From the UHGV virus genome UHGV-0143367: a stretch of 39,254 bases of DNA; one strand, given 5' to 3'. The translations under genes and the position numbers were made by a program. The notes below the pieces were generated by a model. The model did not search any database. It was not told the origin of the DNA and saw only the letters and a list, made by a program, of their open reading frames with translations. The stretch comes from a virus. This document shows positions 4,669-39,254 of this stretch, piece by piece (positions within the stretch are counted from its first letter, which is position 1; every line of letters starts with the position of its first letter).

Positions 4669-4688
4669 ATTGGGACCATGGTCCCAAT
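4669..4688. repeat. SopB-box-like palindrome ATTGGGACCATGGTCCCAAT (centromere-like site)
   Basis: Perfect 20-bp palindrome, core identical in arms to the F sopC SopB-binding inverted repeat TGGGACC-NN-GGTCCCA. Confidence 0.7.
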
Positions 4689-12704: not shown

Positions 12705-12775
12705 GATTTTTCTCTCTTTTTAGACATAAAAAAGCAGCCATATGGCTGCTTTCAGGGTGACGCGTAGGCGTCGGG

Positions 12776-19839: not shown

Positions 19840-19859
19840 ATTGGGACCATGGTCCCAAT
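19840..19859. repeat. SopB-box-like palindrome ATTGGGACCATGGTCCCAAT
   Basis: Perfect 20-bp palindrome, same sequence as 4669-4688 and 32501-32520. Confidence 0.7.
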
Positions 19860-23317: not shown

Positions 23318-23335
23318 TTGGGACCATGGTCCCAA
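23318..23335. repeat. SopB-box-like palindrome TTGGGACCATGGTCCCAA
   Basis: Perfect 18-bp palindrome in an AT-rich intergenic region. Confidence 0.7.
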
Positions 23336-29044: not shown

Positions 29045-29062
29045 TTGGGACCATGGTCCCAA
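29045..29062. repeat. SopB-box-like palindrome TTGGGACCATGGTCCCAA
   Basis: Perfect 18-bp palindrome, intergenic. Confidence 0.7.
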
Positions 29063-29369: not shown

Positions 29370-29991
29370 GTATTAACGCCTCCCGATCCATTTGAACACC
29401 GCAGGCCAACATGACATCCCAGCGATTTTTATAATTCTTCCGCCATAGGTCATATTTCACACCACATAGCTGGCTCAATTCTTCCTGGCTGTATTTAAGC
29501 TCGCCGCGGTTAATGAAATTTTTTGATTCCTGTAGAGCCAACCAGGCAAGTGCTTTTAAGTTGCTTTCAGTCTTGCCGTTCATTTTTGGCGATTTGCTTT
29601 CAGCCAAGTTAATCAGCAGGGAATGCCAGATATGTGTTGTCAGTATTGTTTGATATTCAAATGAAATTGAATCGCCGTAGCAGTAATTCAACCAGGATTT
29701 ATACGGCTCAGGCATTTTCAATAACGCGCTACGCCATGACACCTGGCTAAAAATGGCTGGCGATACCGGGATCATGCTCGTATGGTAACGCTTGCCTTCT
29801 CTGTAGCTGATTGGCTCGGCATCAATGACAATGACAGTGTCGTTATCGATATCAATTTCACGCTGCGGCTTTGCAGTAAATCGGCTCTGCAGTGGCGCAC
29901 GTTCTGCCATCGCGATGATCTGATTGCGGTGCGATTTTGAGAACGACAAAAGCGCTGCAGTAAGCTCGTTGCGAACAAAATTAAACTGCAT
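29326..29991 (-). CDS. Hypothetical regulatory protein (candidate late antiterminator Q by position)
   Basis: 221-aa ORF downstream of cro in the immunity region; no motif confirmed. Confidence 0.35.
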   Translation of the reverse strand: MQFNFVRNELTAALLSFSKSHRNQIIAMAERAPLQSRFTAKPQREIDIDNDTVIVIDAEPISYREGKRYHTSMIPVSPAIFSQVSWRSALLKMPEPYKSWLNYCYGDSISFEYQTILTTHIWHSLLINLAESKSPKMNGKTESNLKALAWLALQESKNFINRGELKYSQEELSQLCGVKYDLWRKNYKNRWDVMLACGVQMDREALIHVDQLRKKHISNRR

Positions 29992-30634
29992 ATTTGCCCC
30001 CTGCTTGATGGCCTAGCGGGCTTAGCGCACTAAGTTCAACGTGGTCCGGTTTAATGCCGGTGGCCATTTCTATATTCAGGATTTCCCGATAGAGGTATGA
30101 CGACAACTCATACAGGCGGTTCTGCAGCTGCTTCAGCGCGTGCTGGTCATCACTGCCATCGTATACACCGTCCTGGGCTGGCGCTGAGTTGGCGAGAACG
30201 GCACCGAATTTCACAGTGATCTCGTCAATTTCAGCGTCGACAGAATCAACACGAATACGGTTGTACTTAGGCATGCGGACCCATTGCAGACCCTGCATTG
30301 CGGCCAGCTTTTGAGAGCACTTATTACGGTACTCTTCCGGAAGACATGACAACCACGTTAACACCCAGTCTGCAGGCATCGGCGTATCACCAGCCAGGAC
30401 GCGCTGTGCACGCTTAATGCAACGGCTACGCCAGCGCATGTAATCCGTGACATTGATGCCTTCAGACCCCATATCAACAAGTCCCTGGAGTTCCAGAGCC
30501 GGAATCAAGCGCATTGTAGAGAATTGTGCGACACTGCCGCCGGTTTCATCGAGCATCCGCAAGGTTGCCCGTATAACCACTGATGACATTGTGTCTCGCG
30601 ATGGACGTTTATTCTGCCCCATGGTCTGAGTCAT
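29981..30634 (-). CDS. Hypothetical early protein downstream of cro (candidate regulator)
   Basis: Start at ATG 30634 with AAGGA Shine-Dalgarno; overlaps cro 3' end. Confidence 0.4.
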   Translation of the reverse strand: MTQTMGQNKRPSRDTMSSVVIRATLRMLDETGGSVAQFSTMRLIPALELQGLVDMGSEGINVTDYMRWRSRCIKRAQRVLAGDTPMPADWVLTWLSCLPEEYRNKCSQKLAAMQGLQWVRMPKYNRIRVDSVDAEIDEITVKFGAVLANSAPAQDGVYDGSDDQHALKQLQNRLYELSSYLYREILNIEMATGIKPDHVELSALSPLGHQAGGKYAV

Positions 30635-30815
30635 CCTTTTCTTTATGCAGTGTGTAATCAGATTTGAGTCGGCCATTTGTCTTAACTTCCAGCTCGTACT
30701 GCCTAAGCATGGGGACATCCTCTCCCCATTTGTAGATCGCAACGCGAGTACAACCGAGCAGTTCGCAGAGTTTGTTTATGCCGCCGCAGGCGGCTATGGC
30801 GTCTTTTGTTTTCAT
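30609..30815 (-). CDS. cro: Cro-like HTH regulator
   Basis: 68 aa; HTH segment (AIAACGGINKLCELLGCTRVAIYKW); divergent from the repressor gene. Confidence 0.7.
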   Translation of the reverse strand: MKTKDAIAACGGINKLCELLGCTRVAIYKWGEDVPMLRQYELEVKTNGRLKSDYTLHKEKDDSDHGAE

Positions 30816-30930
30816 GAAATGATACTAACCAAGCTATACAAGTTTTGTAAAGTGTACTTGTCAAAATTTACATTAATATTCCCTTTAGCCTTGTATAGCT
30901 AGCTATACAGATTTGATTTAATATCTCTCT
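30816..30930. promoter_or_regulatory. Divergent cro/cB promoter-operator region with 18-bp perfect palindrome TGTATAGCTAGCTATACA (30892-30909) and half-site AGCTATACA (30832-30840)
   Basis: Minus-strand -35 TTGACA (30859-30864) with 17-bp spacer to TTGTAT (30836-30841); palindrome lies ~20 bp upstream of the apparently leaderless cB ATG. Confidence 0.5.
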
Positions 30931-31560
30931 ATGGAAAAACGTGGTGATTGGCTGAAGGCTCGCCGTGAAGAGCTGAAGAAGCGAAATAAATCAAAGTTCT
31001 CAGTGAGAGCTGTTGCCGAACGCATCGGTATTACCGGTGCTGGCCTCTCGCATCTCGAAAACAGCGATGCTATGCCCGCGTTAGATCTGGCTATCAAGCT
31101 GGCGCGAGAGCTGGGCCGTCCTGTTGAATGGATCTTAACCGGTGCTGGCGGGGATGTGTTCCGTGGAGTCCCTGTTATTGGTTCTACTGCTACCGGTCCC
31201 AATCTGGAAATGATAAACAGCGGTCTGGCTCAAAACTGCCGGGAATTCGTTGATATCAATGTACAGGATGCAGCCTTATACGGCCTGATGGTCGATAACG
31301 ACGTTGCAGCGCCGTATCATATCGGTGAAGTACTGATCGCAGACCCTAATCGCGAGCCGGTGACAGGGGAAGATGTGGTGGTAGTCACAAAATCTGGCAA
31401 TGATACGTTTATTAAGATGTTAGCGTCTAAACGTGATGGCAAAGTGTTTCTTGACGCGCCGAACGACAGATCTCAGCGCGTGATAATCGATCTTGACGAA
31501 ATTATTTTGATTCATCCCGTTATCTGCGTGGCTAAATCTATAGCAGTTAAGGCCAGATAG
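30931..31560 (+). CDS. cB: Prophage repressor CB (CI-like HTH-XRE with C-terminal S24/LexA-like domain)
   Basis: 209 aa; N-terminal HTH (FSVRAVAERIGITGAGLSHLEN), C-terminal beta-rich domain; divergent from cro. Confidence 0.75.
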   Translation: MEKRGDWLKARREELKKRNKSKFSVRAVAERIGITGAGLSHLENSDAMPALDLAIKLARELGRPVEWILTGAGGDVFRGVPVIGSTATGPNLEMINSGLAQNCREFVDINVQDAALYGLMVDNDVAAPYHIGEVLIADPNREPVTGEDVVVVTKSGNDTFIKMLASKRDGKVFLDAPNDRSQRVIIDLDEIILIHPVICVAKSIAVKAR

Positions 31561-31580
31561 TAAATTTTAGTAACCAAGGT

Positions 31581-31610
31581 TTGTCAAATGCACTTGTCAG
31601 AGGCTATTAT
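31581..31610 (+). promoter_or_regulatory. Sigma70-like promoter (TTGTCA-18 bp-TATTAT) directed toward repA
   Basis: -35 TTGTCA at 31581-31586, -10 TATTAT at 31605-31610. Confidence 0.4.
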
Positions 31611-31703
31611 GTGGCGTGATAGCAATGATGAGTAAGAACTTGCCCCAGAGGTATAGTGCCAAGTGAGCACTTTTTAACCACCTCTGGATTCAGACAAATA
31701 AAA

Positions 31704-31731
31704 AGCCCCGGATGTGGCGTCCAGGGCTTTT
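31704..31731 (+). terminator. Terminator-like hairpin in repA leader
   Basis: AGCCCCGGA ... TCCAGGGCT stem (one mismatch) followed by TTTT. Confidence 0.4.
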
Positions 31732-31841
31732 CGGTGAAACAGGTCTAGAGTCAGCTCTTGTCGAAATGTGATTGGCGTTCACTAACAAAGATGCTAATCA
31801 AGACACAAGTGTGGAGTTGATTGTAGTTCGTTTCACCTGCA

Positions 31842-31868
31842 CTGCGCAACTGCGCAGCGTCTTTTTTT
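31842..31868 (+). terminator. Terminator-like hairpin plus T7 run ending ~10 nt before the repA start codon
   Basis: CTGCGC-aact-GCGCAG stem followed by CGTCTTTTTTT, then GGTGA Shine-Dalgarno and ATG. Confidence 0.4.
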
Positions 31869-31878
31869 GGGTGAAATA

Positions 31879-34800
31879 ATGAATTTAACGGAATATTTTC
31901 AACACAAATTTAACTCTGACCCGTTTTCGCTGCTTGATGCAGCATCAAATGAACTGAGTGATCTCGCGAACGCTGCCGGTATCGACTGGCATAAATGCGC
32001 TGGAGATATTCAGCTTTCTGCCTCTCGCGGTTCCGCTGAAAAATTCACAAAGTATGCCCACCATGGTCCTGCCGTTACTGATCCAAAGCTGAAAGGCAAG
32101 GTTGAGATTTACTCCCGCATGGAGTGTTCTCAGGACGGTATCAAATACCCGTTCATCAACTTTGTCTGTAAAGGTGCTGACGCTGGCGTATGGAGTGGCT
32201 TCCAGTTCCTTATCTCTGAATACCGTCGATACAAAGAACAGAACGGTGGGACCGTGGTCCCACTGTCTGCGCGTGAACTGGAGCAGCGTAAACGTGCTGA
32301 GGCGCGCCGCCATGAACGTGAGCGCCAGCAGGCTATCTCTGTGTTTATGGAGTCGCAGCGCCGCGACGCTGACCTGAACGAATACCTGCAGTTCTCCGCC
32401 GCATTCGCCAAGGCACCGGCAGAAGATGGTTCATGGCCATATGCGGTGAAGAAAGGCATCAGCTCTGTTTTCTCATACTGTAACGTAAGACGCGTAACCC
32501 ATTGGGACCATGGTCCCAATTCTAAAGCGGTTAAAAAACAAACTGTTATGGCGATTCCGCTGTCGCATATTGATGACCGTCGGGAAGACCGTGAATCTCG
32601 CGTTGGGCCGATTGTTGGCTGGCAGCGAATCACCGAGAGAAACGACAAGCTGCAGACCCGCGCTGTAGATTCCGGTGACTTTGCCGGTTCGTGTCACATC
32701 ATCGGCCAGCTGCGCGGCGCAACCAGGATCTGTGTTGTTGAAGGGTTCGCGACTGGTGCCAGCGTGTTCGCTGTAGCGAAAAAACGCTTTGATGCTGTTG
32801 TTGTGGCTGTGTCAGCAAATAACGTTATCAAGGTTGTTGATCAGCTGGTCAGCCTGTACCCAGGCATGGAAATCTGGTGCGCACTGGATAACGACCAGAA
32901 ATCGGCGCGGAATGGAAAAGGCAATACCGGGTTAAGAGTCGGCATCGATGTGATGAAGAAATTCCCGCAGGTCCGCTGCACATTCCCGATTTTCGACAGC
33001 AGCGAAACCGAATTAAGCGACTTTAACGATCTCCACCAGGCGCGCGGCGCCACCGAAACCAACCGCCAGCTGTTTTCAAAACAGAACCGCCTGCAGCTGC
33101 CAGGCAATTCCTTTGATGCTGAAATGCTGTCTCTGGCCGTTGCGCCGGTTTCCGATCGCCGCGCGTTCTCGCGCCAGCTGGTACGCTGCATTGATGCCGG
33201 CATGATGCAATGCCCGTCCAAGTTATCCCCGCAGGAGCTGATCTCGCTGATAAAAATGAAGCTGGACCAGCTCGGCGCCGACAAAGCGCTGCACGGTACC
33301 GTGTATAACCGCGTTAAACGCGCCTTCAAACAGAAATGCGACAAGGCCCAGGCTTTCCGATCATTCAGCGAGCGCGTAACGAACCCGGCAATACGCCCCG
33401 ACCACATCACCTATAAGCGGTTTGAAACACCCCACATGACCAAGGAAGTGCTGGATTACATCAAAGCACTGAGCGGCCCGGTAATCGTCCGTGCCGGCAT
33501 GGGGTCGGGCAAATCCAAACACTTGCTGCGCCCTATGATGCACAGCGCGCAGCGCGGCGTTTCGGTGGCGCACCGCGTTTCGCTGATTGGTGGCCTCTGG
33601 GACATGATGACGCGTGCCGACGATGGCCGTCGCATGAATTGCGACATCCTGCACTACCAGGACCCCGGCTATCAGGAGCTGGCGCCGTATGCCAGCAAAC
33701 TGACAATTTGTATTAACTCTATCGTGAAGGGCTGCTGGCAGCCACTGATGCGCAAACACGATTTCTTTGGCCTGGATGAAGCCACCCAGGGCCTGCGCGC
33801 CACGCTTTCCGGTAAAGCGATGGCGCACCCGGTTGATGTATTCAACCGTCTTATCGACTCTATCGCGTACAGCGATGACCACGCGCTGCTGGTTGATGCA
33901 GACGCCAGCGATATCCTGGTAGACCTCTGCGAACTGGCGCTGGCCAAACGCGAACAAACAGGCCTGTCGACCTGGACACAGATCCACGTCATCGAGCTGC
34001 CGGTTGATGTGAAGTACAAAAAAGCCGATGGCACGCGCGAAGCGCGCCGCGTACTTTACACCGACACCGATCGCATCATGGTTGAAGTACTGAAAGCCGT
34101 GGCTGCCGGCGAAAAATTCCTGCTGGCCACTGACTCAACCAACTTTGCCGAACAGTTGCTACTGCAGCTGCGCGACCGCTGGCCAGAAAAGAAATGGCTT
34201 TACGTCAGCCAGGACACAAAGCCGGATCAGGAAGTTGTGGCGTTTACCGACGCGCCGAACCAGCGCGCTAAACTCTACGATGGCCTTATTTATAGCCCGG
34301 CTATCAGTTCTGGCGTATCGATCGAAGAACGGCACTTCACCCGCCATTTCGGCTGCTTCTGCGGCCAGGTAGTGCCGTCCGACGCCATTCAGATGCTGCG
34401 CCGCGACAGGACCGCCACCGAATTTATGGTCGGCCTGAACAAGCTGCCTGGCGTACGCGAAGAGAACGCCGACAACATCCGCCGTGGGTTCCTGCAGGCA
34501 CTGCTGGAAACTGCCGAGATAAACGAAGAATTTACCGACGCCATCCTGGATGGCGACCGCCTTTCCCTTGGTCTGGCGGACACCACCTATGTCCGCATGA
34601 AATTTAAAGTTGCCGCGATGGAGGCCCAGGCCAGAAACGATTTCGCCAACAACCTGATCTGCATTCTCTACGCCGATGGCTATAACGTCAGCCACTTGGC
34701 CGAAGACTCGCTGGCCAGCGAAACCGGCAAAGAACTGCGTAAGGCATCGAAAGAGCGGGTCTGGGATATGACCGTTCTGCGCCATATGGAAGTGGAAACC

Positions 34801-35868
34801 CCGGACGAAGACGAACGCGACGAACTGATGGGCAAGCGATCACTATCTGAAGATGAGCAGGCGCAACTGGCGCGCTGGGATATCGAAAAAGAGTTGATGC
34901 TGGATGTCAGCCCGGAATCTCTGAAATTCCTGCTCGATGGCGGGAAGAAGAAACTGACGCTGGCCGAACTGATGACGATGGATGAAATGACCGCCGCACG
35001 CATTGACCGTGAGCAGCAGGCTTTCACGTTCACCTACCAATTCCGCAAAGGGCCGCGTAACGAATTTGTAACGATCACCGCGCTCAACCGCGAAGCAGCT
35101 GATGCGCAGTTCGACCGCATGCAGCCAGGAATAACCGGCTACACCGTCCAAAGCCGCCCGGTGATGGAAGTAACCCAGCGTACGTACGCATCGCTGCACC
35201 GTAAGGCCGCCAGGGAGTATTTCTCCACCTGCGGTATTAACCCAGATACCGGCGCCGGTGAAGCCAGCCAGGAAGGTATGGCGGAAGCTATGGCCAAACT
35301 TATGGACCCAACCACCGCGGATCGTTTCAACAACGTCCTGCGGTTCGGTGGCTATATAAACCCTAAAGGCCGCCAGAAACGCCCCGAGACGGTTTTCAAA
35401 CAGATCTGTGAGGCATTCGGTTACGCGACTCAGAAACGCCGCCTACCGCGTTCACAGGGCCTCGGTTACGTGTGGTCAATCGTCCCCGAATCCTGGGAAT
35501 TCATTCACGGAATTCTGGCGCGTCGCGCCGAGGCATCACTGTCGTTTGTCCAGATGAAACTGGATGTGGGGGCACCGGAAGAACCGGATCTCGATTGCCG
35601 ATCAAATATAGATGTAAGATCCCAATCTGGATCTGCTGAGACGGCATTTATTGAGGCAACGCTGACGACGATTGAAGAGGCTATCGCTGCGATGCCGGTG
35701 CCATTTGCATGGCTGAGAACCGCACTGACGCCGGAAGAACTGGCACAACTCGCGACTATGCCGCCACGGTTGATACAGGCGACGGTTGCCGGGCTGTTTA
35801 TGGCTGACAATATGTGGCAACTATCAGATGGCCAATACAACGAACTGAAGCGGTTGCAGGCGGTTTAA
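31879..35868 (+). CDS. repA: Replication protein RepA (primase-helicase) of N15-type linear plasmid-prophage
   Basis: About 1329 aa from ATG 31879 (ORF track begins at upstream TTG); Walker A GMGSGKSK; size and position next to cB and telN as in N15. Confidence 0.85.
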   Translation: MNLTEYFQHKFNSDPFSLLDAASNELSDLANAAGIDWHKCAGDIQLSASRGSAEKFTKYAHHGPAVTDPKLKGKVEIYSRMECSQDGIKYPFINFVCKGADAGVWSGFQFLISEYRRYKEQNGGTVVPLSARELEQRKRAEARRHERERQQAISVFMESQRRDADLNEYLQFSAAFAKAPAEDGSWPYAVKKGISSVFSYCNVRRVTHWDHGPNSKAVKKQTVMAIPLSHIDDRREDRESRVGPIVGWQRITERNDKLQTRAVDSGDFAGSCHIIGQLRGATRICVVEGFATGASVFAVAKKRFDAVVVAVSANNVIKVVDQLVSLYPGMEIWCALDNDQKSARNGKGNTGLRVGIDVMKKFPQVRCTFPIFDSSETELSDFNDLHQARGATETNRQLFSKQNRLQLPGNSFDAEMLSLAVAPVSDRRAFSRQLVRCIDAGMMQCPSKLSPQELISLIKMKLDQLGADKALHGTVYNRVKRAFKQKCDKAQAFRSFSERVTNPAIRPDHITYKRFETPHMTKEVLDYIKALSGPVIVRAGMGSGKSKHLLRPMMHSAQRGVSVAHRVSLIGGLWDMMTRADDGRRMNCDILHYQDPGYQELAPYASKLTICINSIVKGCWQPLMRKHDFFGLDEATQGLRATLSGKAMAHPVDVFNRLIDSIAYSDDHALLVDADASDILVDLCELALAKREQTGLSTWTQIHVIELPVDVKYKKADGTREARRVLYTDTDRIMVEVLKAVAAGEKFLLATDSTNFAEQLLLQLRDRWPEKKWLYVSQDTKPDQEVVAFTDAPNQRAKLYDGLIYSPAISSGVSIEERHFTRHFGCFCGQVVPSDAIQMLRRDRTATEFMVGLNKLPGVREENADNIRRGFLQALLETAEINEEFTDAILDGDRLSLGLADTTYVRMKFKVAAMEAQARNDFANNLICILYADGYNVSHLAEDSLASETGKELRKASKERVWDMTVLRHMEVETPDEDERDELMGKRSLSEDEQAQLARWDIEKELMLDVSPESLKFLLDGGKKKLTLAELMTMDEMTAARIDREQQAFTFTYQFRKGPRNEFVTITALNREAADAQFDRMQPGITGYTVQSRPVMEVTQRTYASLHRKAAREYFSTCGINPDTGAGEASQEGMAEAMAKLMDPTTADRFNNVLRFGGYINPKGRQKRPETVFKQICEAFGYATQKRRLPRSQGLGYVWSIVPESWEFIHGILARRAEASLSFVQMKLDVGAPEEPDLDCRSNIDVRSQSGSAETAFIEATLTTIEEAIAAMPVPFAWLRTALTPEELAQLATMPPRLIQATVAGLFMADNMWQLSDGQYNELKRLQAV
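32247..32262. repeat. SopB-box-like inverted repeat TGGGACC-GT-GGTCCCA inside repA
   Basis: Direct match; encodes ...GGTVVP... in the RepA frame. Confidence 0.65.
32501..32520. repeat. SopB-box-like palindrome ATTGGGACCATGGTCCCAAT inside repA
   Basis: Perfect 20-bp palindrome; encodes ...HWDHGPN... in the RepA frame. Confidence 0.7.
35585..35640. other. Candidate replication-origin element inside the 3' end of repA: four GATC sites in 47 bp with inverted repeat AGATCC...GGATCT
   Basis: GATC at 35587, 35600, 35618, 35630; the N15 ori maps within the 3' part of repA (recalled, not verified here). Confidence 0.3.
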
Positions 35869-35878
35869 GGGGATATCT

Positions 35879-36220
35879 ATGTCGACTACTGATTTTTTGA
35901 AAACACTGGATCGTGTCCAGCTGCAGTTCTGCCGGAATAAGTGCGACGAAATGCTTCGTGCTATCCAGGAAGAACAAAAGAAGGTCGCCTGGGCGGTAAC
36001 TGATGGCTCGGTCAACTACGGCTGGTACCGAACTGAGGACTACCTTAAAGCTGTCGAATGCCTGGTACGCGAAGCTGAGAAGCGCTGGAACGAAGAGACT
36101 GAAGAAGACAAAGGCAACCCGCAAACTCGCGGCTGGCTGAACTTTTCTATTCAGGGCCAGCGCCTGCCGGCGTCCGAATACGAAGCGCTGTTTGCTGATG
36201 GCCAGTGGGGGTTAACGTGA
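35879..36220 (+). CDS. Hypothetical protein, first gene of operon downstream of repA
   Basis: 113 aa; strong Shine-Dalgarno (AAGGGGA) 10 nt after the repA stop. Confidence 0.45.
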   Translation: MSTTDFLKTLDRVQLQFCRNKCDEMLRAIQEEQKKVAWAVTDGSVNYGWYRTEDYLKAVECLVREAEKRWNEETEEDKGNPQTRGWLNFSIQGQRLPASEYEALFADGQWGLT

Positions 36221-37140: not shown

Positions 37141-39042
37141 TTAATTTTCTGGGAAATACGCAAACCATGCTGATTTCATGGCACTGCTGATACTATCCGC
37201 CGCGCCACTCCAGGCGTATAGCTGCCCCTTGTATTTGAAACGGATCGTCCAGCTGCCGTCGTCACTACGAACGGGCGCGGAGAAGCGTGGACGAGTGTCT
37301 ATTGGTACTGGTTTTTCCTCTTCGGCCTCGGCGGTCACGCCATCTTCTCGGCCTTCCTCTTCAGCTTCCAGCGCCTGGGTATCGTCACTGGTTTCCTCTC
37401 TATCGGCACCGCTATCGCCAGCGAGGTCGTCTTCACCATCCAGTTCGTCAGAGGTTATGACAATAGAGGGCGCATCTGCATTGTTAATCGTACTGCTCAT
37501 AGCCAGCGCCTCAGCAACAAAATCAAGATACCGGCGAACTAGCGTCGGGTTAAATCCAGCATCTCGTAATATTTTTGTGTTGATGACGATATCAGCTGAT
37601 TCCTCCACCAGCCGCTTTGTTGTTTCATGAATACGGATACCGGCATCGCCCCTGGCGAAGCCAGGCATTTGGTCGTCAAGCGCTTGTAGAGCAGCGAGGC
37701 GCTTATTTTCAATCCCCGTTTCCGGGCGCCAGCTGCGTGAGAAATTATGCAGTTTGAACTGTTTGTAGTGCAGCTGCGTATTTTCGTCGTCATGCCCCAG
37801 GATTTCAGAGAAAAAGACGTCCTCATCAACGTTTTTCCAGCGCGGGTCGTAGCGGAAAAACGCCTCATAGGTGATACGCGCATAAATTGCGCGCGTGTCT
37901 TTGAATGTTCGGCGGTCGTCGCCGAAGAACAGCTTCGCGTGCTGGTTAAATGTGTTACCAAGAATTGATGCGATGCGCACATTTGCGGCCCGGTAGCTAT
38001 CATCGTTCAACAGAGATCTGATTTCGTCAAAATCAGCCGCTGCGGGGCAACTTCTCAGTTCATTTAAACGTTGAACGAACAGGGCCGGGTCGCACAGCAC
38101 ATAAATTTTACGCCCCTTATCCTCGCCGGTTCGTTTTTTGGCCTGCCCGTAGAAAATAACTTCATACTTGCCGGTAACCTCAAATTCTCCCTGAACCATC
38201 ACCTCAATCAATCGACGCCCGGATACGGCTGCTAGCGCGAACGCCAGCGGCGCCATATCCTTACGTTGCGTGATAAGTGATGGTTCAAACGCCTTGTAGA
38301 TCTGCTCGGTCACAGCCTGCATATATTTGGGGTAGTCCAAGAGTACAGTTGACCGTTTCTTCTCGCTGAGCACCTCGCCCCAGCGCTGCTGTATCGATGA
38401 GCGTTCTGCCGGACTCAACTGCAGGTGATACAGAATTTCATGGTTGATTTTCAGGCCGTTCAGATCATCCAACAAGCGGGTTCCCTGTTGGAACGCGGCA
38501 TGCATTTCGGTTTCGACCGACTTCCAGTCTTGGCTGGTCAACGCGTTAAGATAGATGCTCCAGGCAGGGTATTTTTTTGCCAGGCGCGTCAATTTTTTCT
38601 CCGCAGCCGGTCCGAACTTCATACCCGAAAGCACCTCCGCCAGCGGCATAATTTCCTTCAGTTGGCCCTGTAGATTGCCGTATGCCTGACGAATATCTGC
38701 CGCAGGCATAGATTGCCACGCCTGTAATTCAGCACTGTAGGCGGGGTATTTTGCCGCTAACTTTTCAATGCTGCTGGTGAAGTGATGGTGCAAACGGTCG
38801 TCGAACTGTTTACGAATACGGGTCATATACGCGTTATAAGTATTGGCTGTAATGCGTTTCTTCAAACCGTTACCACGGAACTTCCTTTTATCTAAAAATA
38901 GCGCGTTTTTAACACGTGTAGCCGCAGCCTTATATTTTCGTGTCTTATCTCCCTGTGGGATGTCGGACGCTTCGATAGCGTCAACGTCCGCCACCAAATC
39001 AGAGATGATTTTACCAATTCCGCCATCGCCTAGCTTCGCCAT
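37141..39042 (-). CDS. telN: Protelomerase (telomere resolvase) TelN
   Basis: 633 aa; long blocks match N15 TelN as recalled (QGDKT, NALF.DKRKFRG.GL.KRITAN, HLQLSPAER.SIQQRW, MAPLAFALAAVSGRR, WKNVDEDVFF.EILGHDDENTQLHYKQFKL.NFSR.WRPE, MPGFARGDAG); acidic C-terminal tail; GAGGGGGG Shine-Dalgarno. Confidence 0.95.
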   Translation of the reverse strand: MAKLGDGGIGKIISDLVADVDAIEASDIPQGDKTRKYKAAATRVKNALFLDKRKFRGNGLKKRITANTYNAYMTRIRKQFDDRLHHHFTSSIEKLAAKYPAYSAELQAWQSMPAADIRQAYGNLQGQLKEIMPLAEVLSGMKFGPAAEKKLTRLAKKYPAWSIYLNALTSQDWKSVETEMHAAFQQGTRLLDDLNGLKINHEILYHLQLSPAERSSIQQRWGEVLSEKKRSTVLLDYPKYMQAVTEQIYKAFEPSLITQRKDMAPLAFALAAVSGRRLIEVMVQGEFEVTGKYEVIFYGQAKKRTGEDKGRKIYVLCDPALFVQRLNELRSCPAAADFDEIRSLLNDDSYRAANVRIASILGNTFNQHAKLFFGDDRRTFKDTRAIYARITYEAFFRYDPRWKNVDEDVFFSEILGHDDENTQLHYKQFKLHNFSRSWRPETGIENKRLAALQALDDQMPGFARGDAGIRIHETTKRLVEESADIVINTKILRDAGFNPTLVRRYLDFVAEALAMSSTINNADAPSIVITSDELDGEDDLAGDSGADREETSDDTQALEAEEEGREDGVTAEAEEEKPVPIDTRPRFSAPVRSDDGSWTIRFKYKGQLYAWSGAADSISSAMKSAWFAYFPEN

Positions 39043-39200: not shown

Positions 39201-39254
39201 AAACGACACACATTATTAAATATACGCGCGTATATTTAATAATGTGTGTCGTTT
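39201..39254. repeat. Telomere resolution site (telRL-like): perfect 54-bp palindrome centred on TATACGCGCGTATA
   Basis: AAACGACACACATTATTAAATATACGC|GCGTATATTTAATAATGTGTGTCGTTT is its own reverse complement; central (CG)3 in TATA context resembles the N15 telO core; located ~160 bp upstream of the telN start. Confidence 0.85.

Follow-up and report, generated by a model that had tools for sequence, protein, structure and literature searches.

A perfect 18-bp palindrome lies between the divergent genes cro and cB of the virus genome UHGV-0143367, which raises the question of which of the two encoded repressors reads it and which promoter is controlled from it. The original prediction, made from the DNA letters alone, took the palindrome for an operator of CB. 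Our analysis of the window (the whole stretch of DNA, 39,254 bp) and of related phages points to another explanation, to which we assign a probability of about 0.78: the palindrome is OR3, mainly the site of Cro and the weakest site of CB, and the primary CB sites lie over the cro and repA promoters. The locus and its setting comprise the following features.

30609-30815, minus strand: cro, 68 amino acids (aa), P22_Cro family (Pfam E value, 1.8e-18)
30892-30909, no strand: OR3, a perfect 18-bp dyad with the arms TGTATAGCT and AGCTATACA (full sequence, TGTATAGCTAGCTATACA)
30931-31560, plus strand: cB/cI prophage repressor gene, 209 aa, an HTH_3 protein (Pfam HTH_3 and Phage_CI_repr)
37141-39042, minus strand: protelomerase gene, TelK domains (Pfam)

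The window is that of a PY54-like telomere phage, with a CB and a Cro that are 62% and 69% identical to the CI and Cro of PY54, respectively; its CB is 39% identical to CB of N15, and its Cro can be aligned with structures 2HIN and 6ON0 of N15 Cro (E value, 1e-6). The palindrome is flanked by genes homologous to those of telomere-phage CB/CI and P22_Cro-type Cro, and the Pfam matches of neighboring genes on the same element include antiterminator Q, a 1,329-aa RepA with a Toprim domain, and the protelomerase. The nearest CB protein cluster is labeled Citrobacter freundii. Near-identity DNA searches found no close relative in phage and plasmid collections, and the window is distinct from N15, PY54, and phiKO2. 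Judged by the CB and Cro matches, the neighboring genes, and the lack of a close DNA match among deposited phages and plasmids, the window is an undescribed PY54-like linear-plasmid prophage. Between the end of the cro ATG at 30815 (on the complement) and the beginning of the cB ATG at 30931 lies a divergent region of exactly 115 bp (30816-30930). This is the operator/promoter region of the primary immunity locus, immB. CB gave no Peptidase_S24 match in Pfam at an E value of ≤0.01 and has no detectable S24 self-cleavage domain, so induction probably proceeds through an antirepressor rather than through RecA-stimulated cleavage. In agreement with this, the CB proteins of N15 and phiKO2 are reported to be without the self-cleavage residues (PMC4997575). 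A 213-aa open reading frame without a Pfam match (29981-30622, minus strand), located between cro and Q, is the counterpart of PY54 ORF42 and P840 ORF40; prophage-repressor activity has been reported for the P840 ORF40 protein (PMC10612081).

The end of the window is formed by a 54-bp perfect palindrome with a central TACGCGCGTA (39201-39254), which adjoins the protelomerase gene. It is probably the telomere resolution site telRL, with the window ending within or at the palindrome. Another perfect palindrome, (A)TTGGGACCATGGTCCCAA(T), is present in five dispersed copies (4669-4688, 19840-19859, 23318-23335, 29045-29062, and 32501-32520), which we take to resemble the scattered partition (centromere) sites of N15. 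A 22-bp perfect palindrome, AAAGCAGCCATATGGCTGCTTT (12731-12752), is located between two leftward open reading frames and may be a terminator or a binding site.

The 18-bp palindrome at 30892-30909 agrees in sequence and coordinates with the original prediction, and the distance to the cB start, given there as about 20 bp, measures 21 nt to the ATG. Its 16-bp core is GTATAGCTAGCTATAC (30893-30908). The search for further copies of the motif that had been proposed found the 9-mer AGCTATACA three times in 39,254 bp, all in the divergent region: at 30832-30840 on the plus strand and in both arms of the palindrome. This compares with 0.14 copies expected by chance, and three copies were reached in 0 of 100 shuffles. 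No second 18-mer site with up to 3 mismatches was found in the 39,254-bp window, and the 16-bp core has two other matches there, each with 3 mismatches, inside genes and at chance level. At 30832, the match can be extended to the 11-nt sequence AGCTATACAAG, which is complementary to CTTGTATAGCT at 30890-30900.

The orthology of the palindrome was assessed with relatives drawn from collections of viral, metagenome, and genome sequences and from contigs coding for CB homologs. The resulting set consists of 28 distinct intergenic regions, PY54 and P840 included, whose CB proteins are approximately 48 to 98% identical to that of the window; genome contigs yielded no locus when scanned with a single protein and one locus when scanned with an alignment. 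The motif TGTATAGCyAGCTrTACA is located 21 to 22 nt before the cB/cI ATG in all 28 distinct relatives and is by far the best-conserved block of the cro-cB intergenic region. Its positions 1 to 8 and 11 to 18 are invariant or nearly so across the relatives, with T1 and A18 invariant, while the three bases on each side are random. Two divergent relatives depart from it at half-site position 4, which is changed in both arms in L021 (TGTCTAG....CTAGACA) and in the left arm in L045 (TGTCTAG), where the dyad is kept, a pattern that suggests a site read by a dimer. One relative contig, Ga0153999_1000041 (83,162 bp), carries immB twice in opposite orientation (47201-50833, reversed, and 32330-35962; L026/L027, also L037/L038), which could mean that the element is dimerized head to head or that the assembly ran across a hairpin telomere.

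The counterparts at the same position are TGTATAGCCAGCTATACA in the Yersinia telomere phage PY54 and TGTATAGCTAGCTGTACA in P840 (vB_YenS_P840). As in these two phages, the palindrome lies on the cB-proximal side of the divergent region, distal to cro and 21 to 22 nt upstream of a cI/cB gene that is very probably leaderless, and it shares with them the 18-bp dyad (17 of 18 bases identical), the G/C ends of the 16-bp core that mark PY54-type Cro specificity, and a single full copy per genome. The 16-bp dyad T-A-(N)10-T-A with the core ATAGCyAGCTAT, a motif defined previously (PMC4997575), is present in the window as GTATAGCTAGCTATAC, in PY54 as GTATAGCCAGCTATAC, and in OR3 of N15 as TTATAGCCAGCTATAA. 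Sequence and position together indicate that the palindrome is the ortholog of OR3 of the N15/PY54-type linear-plasmid phages. In PY54 (L001, about 2938-2993), the elements GATCACTTTT and AAAAGTGATC flank OR3 without being concentric with it, and a GTGATCATCAC palindrome is found just upstream. L018 carries AGTGATGCGTATCACT upstream of OR3; the window lineage is without the flanking elements of PY54 and L018.

The anatomy, orthology, conservation, and covariation reported here come from the window and its relatives, and Cro binding, CB binding, and leaderless mRNAs are those published for the orthologs. In electrophoretic mobility shift assays (EMSA), OR3 was the sole binding site of PY54 Cro in the whole PY54 genome (PMC4488713, Hammerl et al. 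2015). The inner 16 bp suffice for binding, half-sites are not bound, and the outer G/C pair decides the specificity of PY54 Cro versus the N15 and phiKO2 proteins (PMC4488713). The center of the window site is T-A and hence fully symmetric, whereas that of PY54 is C-A. PY54 Cro still binds a fully symmetric, GCT-AGC-centered site (PMC4488713), and this symmetrized variant is exactly the 16-bp core of the window. Cro at OR3 almost abolishes cI transcription in PY54 (PMC4488713). The Cro proteins of phiKO2 (PMC4997575) and N15 (PMC6649833) were also found to bind OR3 only. On the strength of these orthologs, the high-affinity ligand of OR3 in the window is most probably a Cro dimer.

The OR3 of N15 and phiKO2 (U45242, Lobocka et al. 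1996; PMC4997575, Hammerl et al. 2016) has the same inner 14 bp, TATAGCyAGCTATA, as the window and is likewise cB-proximal; it is the sole Cro site in EMSA and is bound by CB as well, a feature of N15 and phiKO2. N15 Cro (PMC6649833, Hall et al. 2019; PDB 6ON0) belongs to the same P22_Cro fold family, with an all-alpha dimer. The two systems differ in the outer pair, which is T/A in N15 and G/C in the window, and neither type of Cro binds the site of the other. They also differ in spacing, since the N15 OR3 ends 11 nt from the cB start and the core of the window site lies 22 nt from it, and the N15 and phiKO2 proteins are only approximately 35 to 39% identical to those of the window.

These similarities and differences are paralleled in the recognition helix of Cro, whose positions we number H1 to H6 after PMC6649833. 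The aligned helices read T-R-V-A-I-Y-K-W in the window and T-P-G-A-V-Y-Q-W in N15. Just as the inner 14 bp of OR3 are common to the two, so are Ala at H3, Tyr at H5, and the Trp that comes next, and H1 is Pro in N15 (outer base T) but Arg in every PY54-type Cro (outer base G). H2 is Val in the window and Asp in PY54. In the inner 14 bp of OR3, N15 and the window differ at the central pair only, yet their CB recognition helices diverge strongly (SLPGVQN in N15, TGAGLSH in the window). Position 14 (A or G) is the one frequently variable position of OR3, and it tracks the Cro helix: x-A-I-Y occurs with A, and S-A-V-Y or S-S-I-Y occurs with G. It does not track the CB helix, as ISSAGL is found with both variants (L029 versus L004). 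Only two contrasts are informative for the covariation of Cro with position 14, and the site and cro are in physical linkage; we therefore treat the covariation as supporting evidence only.

Which gene is controlled from OR3 depends on its geometry relative to the two promoters and to the additional half-site in the region.

30822-30851, minus strand: cro promoter, with -35 TTTACA (30851 to 30846), an 18-bp spacer, and -10 TAGTAT (30827 to 30822), from a promoter scan
30832-30840, plus strand: third OR3 half-site, AGCTATACA, located about -17 to -25 within the spacer of the cro promoter
30919-30924, plus strand: proximal cB promoter, -10 TAATAT, with conserved TA..AT columns and with 6 nt between it and the ATG at 30931

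The cro -10 stands 6 nt before the cro start codon, whose A is at 30815, a leaderless layout. It aligns column for column with the mutationally defined CATAAT of PY54, and its conserved columns across the 28 relatives are TAnnAT. The weak -35 of the proximal cB promoter falls inside OR3. PY54 has a weak P1 promoter and a leaderless cI mRNA, and its cI and cro mRNAs were shown by RACE to begin at the AUG (PMC4488713). Given these RACE data, the TAATAT located 6 nt before the ATG, and the lack of a Shine-Dalgarno sequence before cB, the cB mRNA is very probably leaderless, in line with what had been proposed. A rightward cB promoter with the -35 TTGTAA (30845-30850) was considered and dropped because its -10 is unconserved in the relatives.

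The half-site at 30832-30840 had been placed on the -10 of the cro promoter, a placement that does not hold: the best-supported -10 is TAGTAT at 30827 to 30822, and the half-site falls in the 18-bp spacer. An alternative cro promoter (TTGACA at 30864 to 30859, 17 bp, TTGTAT) would put the half-site on the -10. We judged it weak, as it has no A at -11, was not listed by the promoter scan, and is not the ortholog of the validated PY54 -10. The half-site is kept, as GCTATACA, only in the closest lineage (L009 to L014 and L024), and PY54 is without it. It probably belongs to a degenerate, OR1-like CB site.

We infer binding in the window element by transferring function from orthologs that are 62 to 69% identical; the candidate sites A, B, and OL described below are inferred as well. 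The 16-bp core would be read as two GTATAGCT halves, each contacted by the recognition helix (R-V-A-I-Y-K-W) of one Cro subunit. The bound dimer would cover the -35 and spacer of the proximal cB promoter as well as the path from any upstream cB promoter, and it would leave the cro promoter, whose -35 is 41 bp away, untouched. Synthesis of the prophage repressor would thereby be switched off, committing the phage to lytic growth. CB probably also occupies OR3, as its weakest site, and would in this way regulate its own synthesis negatively. Immunity and copy-number control would probably be exerted from primary CB sites elsewhere, at the degenerate 18-bp (7-4-7) dyads at 30823-30840, 30846-30863, and 31582-31599.

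The explanation that comes closest to competing with this one, although we consider it unlikely, is the arrangement originally proposed, in which the palindrome is the principal CB operator and CB, bound there and on a half-site at the cro -10, maintains immunity as in a lambda-type switch. In its favor, N15 CB gives a footprint on the N15 OR3, a site annotated as a CB protein_bind feature (U45242), and phiKO2 CB binds OR3 in EMSA (PMC4997575). OR3 also fits the 18-bp frame TGnnnAG-N4-CTnnnCA of putative site B, and its invariant outer T and A suit an 18-bp ligand. Because T1 and A18 are invariant though PY54 Cro needs the inner 16 bp only, and because phiKO2 CB requires 18 bp (PMC4997575), these two positions hint at CB as a second, 18-bp ligand constraining OR3, and CB may matter more there than we assume.

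The order of affinities reported for the orthologs argues against a principal role for CB at this site. All five operators are bound by the CB proteins of phiKO2 and N15, and phiKO2 CB prefers OR1 to OR2 and OR3 (PMC4997575, PMC6649833). Preliminary data for PY54 CI indicate that it binds strongly across the cro promoter and less strongly near OR3 (PMC4488713). The PY54-group CI/CB operators were still called unknown in 2023 (PMC10612081), and no later paper was found. Geometry points the same way: OR3 overlaps the cB promoter and ends 41 bp from the cro -35 hexamer, so CB bound there would repress cB and not cro, and OR3 is therefore unlikely to be the operator that confers immunity. The additional half-site lies in the spacer rather than on the -10, and the variant of OR3 tracks the helix of Cro, not that of CB. 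The palindrome is a real operator, at which CB very probably has a secondary, autoregulatory part; ortholog data, geometry, and Cro-helix covariation weaken the case for CB as the main ligand.

The primary CB operators probably lie over the cro and repA promoters, and the comparison with the relatives brought out three candidates.

30823-30840, no strand: putative OR1-like site A, TACTAAC CAAG CTATACA, over the cro -10 and spacer
30846-30863, no strand: putative OR2-like site B, TGTAAAG TGTA CTTGTCA, overlapping the cro -35
31582-31599, no strand: putative OL-like site, TGTCAAA TGCA CTTGTCA, overlapping the -35 and spacer of the repA promoter

Site A is a poor dyad in the window (2 of 7 positions symmetric), and only its right half resembles OR3. 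At the aligned position, L004, L008, and L029 have perfect 7-4-7 dyads (TGATAAG TCAG/TCAA CTTATCA), and the relatives conserve the columns C-T-n-T-n-C in their cro promoter spacers. Site B begins 23 bp after site A, which is the OR1-OR2 and OL1-OL2 spacing of N15 (U45242). In L045, site B is a perfect dyad (TGTCTAG TAAA CTAGACA) whose half-site equals the left half-site of the L045 OR3, and L021 has a near-dyad of the same kind. The promoter scan placed the repA promoter at 31581-31586 (-35 TTGTCA) and 31605-31610 (-10 TATTAT), and the 18-bp dyad at 31582-31599 matches site B at 14 of 18 positions. The original prediction had found no obvious copy of the motif at the repA promoter; this stands for the exact motif, but the related degenerate dyad is present there. 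Both site B and the OL-like site overlap -35 hexamers, and their right halves vary together by lineage (CTTGTCA, CTTATCA, or CAGATCA). Their agreement was 5.82 of 8 within a genome versus 4.89 of 8 when permuted (P < 1e-4, in a permutation test that ignores phylogeny).

The frame TGNNNAG-N4-CTNNNCA has two hits in the window versus 0.57 expected, with two or more hits in 13 of 100 shuffles, and neither it nor a looser version is significantly enriched genome-wide. Sites A, B, and OL therefore rest on the cross-genome comparison rather than on counts within the window. No convincing second OL site was found 23 bp to either side of 31582-31599. A one-residue code between the CB helix (TGAG, SSAG, SYAG, or TSAG) and the half-sites of the lineages was also tried, and it was suggestive but not clean. 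The 18-bp element common to the cro and repA promoters (30846-30863 and 31582-31599) is a candidate primary CB operator, and the 23-bp spacing would fit repression of cro and repA by CB, as in N15 and phiKO2 and as in the preliminary PY54 data. Read jointly, these observations suggest, at somewhat less than even odds, that operators of PY54-type repressors are 18-bp 7-4-7 dyads of the form TGnnnAG-N4-CTnnnCA, largely separate from the operators of Cro. Such dyads would lie over the cro -10 and spacer, the cro -35, and the repA -35 and spacer; their inner bases would be lineage specific and would change jointly at the cro and repA promoters of one genome; and OR3 would be the one member of the family shared with Cro, its main ligand.

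The cB-repA leader (31560-31880), which contains the OL-like site, has a promoter and start that are strongly conserved, with TATTATGTGGCGTRAT in nearly all relatives. It also holds two terminator-like hairpins, one on the minus strand (31700-31732) and one on the plus strand (31842-31857), in a layout reminiscent of N15, for which a repA leader terminator and an antisense RNA are annotated (U45242).

A role of the palindrome in RNA rather than DNA is very improbable. In that case, a cB transcript initiated upstream would fold through the palindrome and the inverted repeat of 11 nt (30832-30842 and 30890-30900), giving for example a hairpin for processing or attenuation. The repeat can be drawn as an 11-bp stem, and PY54 has a strong upstream cI promoter although the leaderless mRNA alone was detected, which could imply processing (PMC4488713). 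The predicted fold, however, is no better than those of shuffled sequences (z = -1.56, with 12 of 200 shuffles folding equally well); there is no Rfam match, and a loopless AT-rich palindrome makes a poor hairpin. The relatives keep the 8- to 9-nt half-site only, not the flanking pairing, and most lineages are without the upstream copy, yet OR3 is still kept. That the palindrome arose by chance or is a restriction or methylation target without a regulatory role has practically no weight, as nothing favors it beyond an embedded restriction-type hexamer (GCTAGC/CTAG), a shuffled window is expected to contain 0.24 perfect palindromes with arms of 9 nt or more, position and sequence are conserved in 28 of 28 relatives while the flanks drift, and the ortholog is an experimentally defined operator.

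The locus can also be compared with the known switches. The expectation of a lambda-like divergent cro/cB switch was borne out, with the palindrome as one of its operators. Like lambda, the window has divergent cI-like and cro genes around an operator/promoter region and, very probably, a leaderless repressor mRNA, and the OR3 adjacent to its repressor gene would, as in lambda, be the preferred site of Cro, from which the repressor gene is turned off. In lambda, both proteins bind all three operators in opposite orders of affinity, and Cro eventually represses itself, whereas in the telomere phages Cro binds OR3 only and no autorepression of Cro is expected; by homology, this probably holds for the window as well. 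The window differs further from lambda in that its prophage repressor also appears to control repA, and in that CB is without a detectable S24 domain. Compared with a tripartite OR, the window has one full OR3-type site and the two degenerate candidates A and B, 23 bp apart. N15 and phiKO2 have clear OR1, OR2, OL1, and OL2 sites of one 16-bp family, whereas the other sites of the window are degenerate.

The expected ligand of the palindrome is thus corrected from CB to mainly Cro, and the lysis/lysogeny switch of an undescribed PY54-like telomere phage can be annotated with confidence. The known picture of telomere-phage switches is unchanged, and the new material consists of the comparative footprint and the candidate CB operators only. 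The comparison of 28 genomes makes two modest additions: it delimits OR3 as a phylogenetic footprint of exactly 18 bp, in which L021 shows a symmetric double change, and for the PY54 group it yields concrete candidate CI/CB operators that can be tested. If the joint reading of these candidates is true, the two repressors would use largely separate operator sets, and the additional half-site of the window lineage would mark an OR1-like site partly converted to the sequence of OR3.
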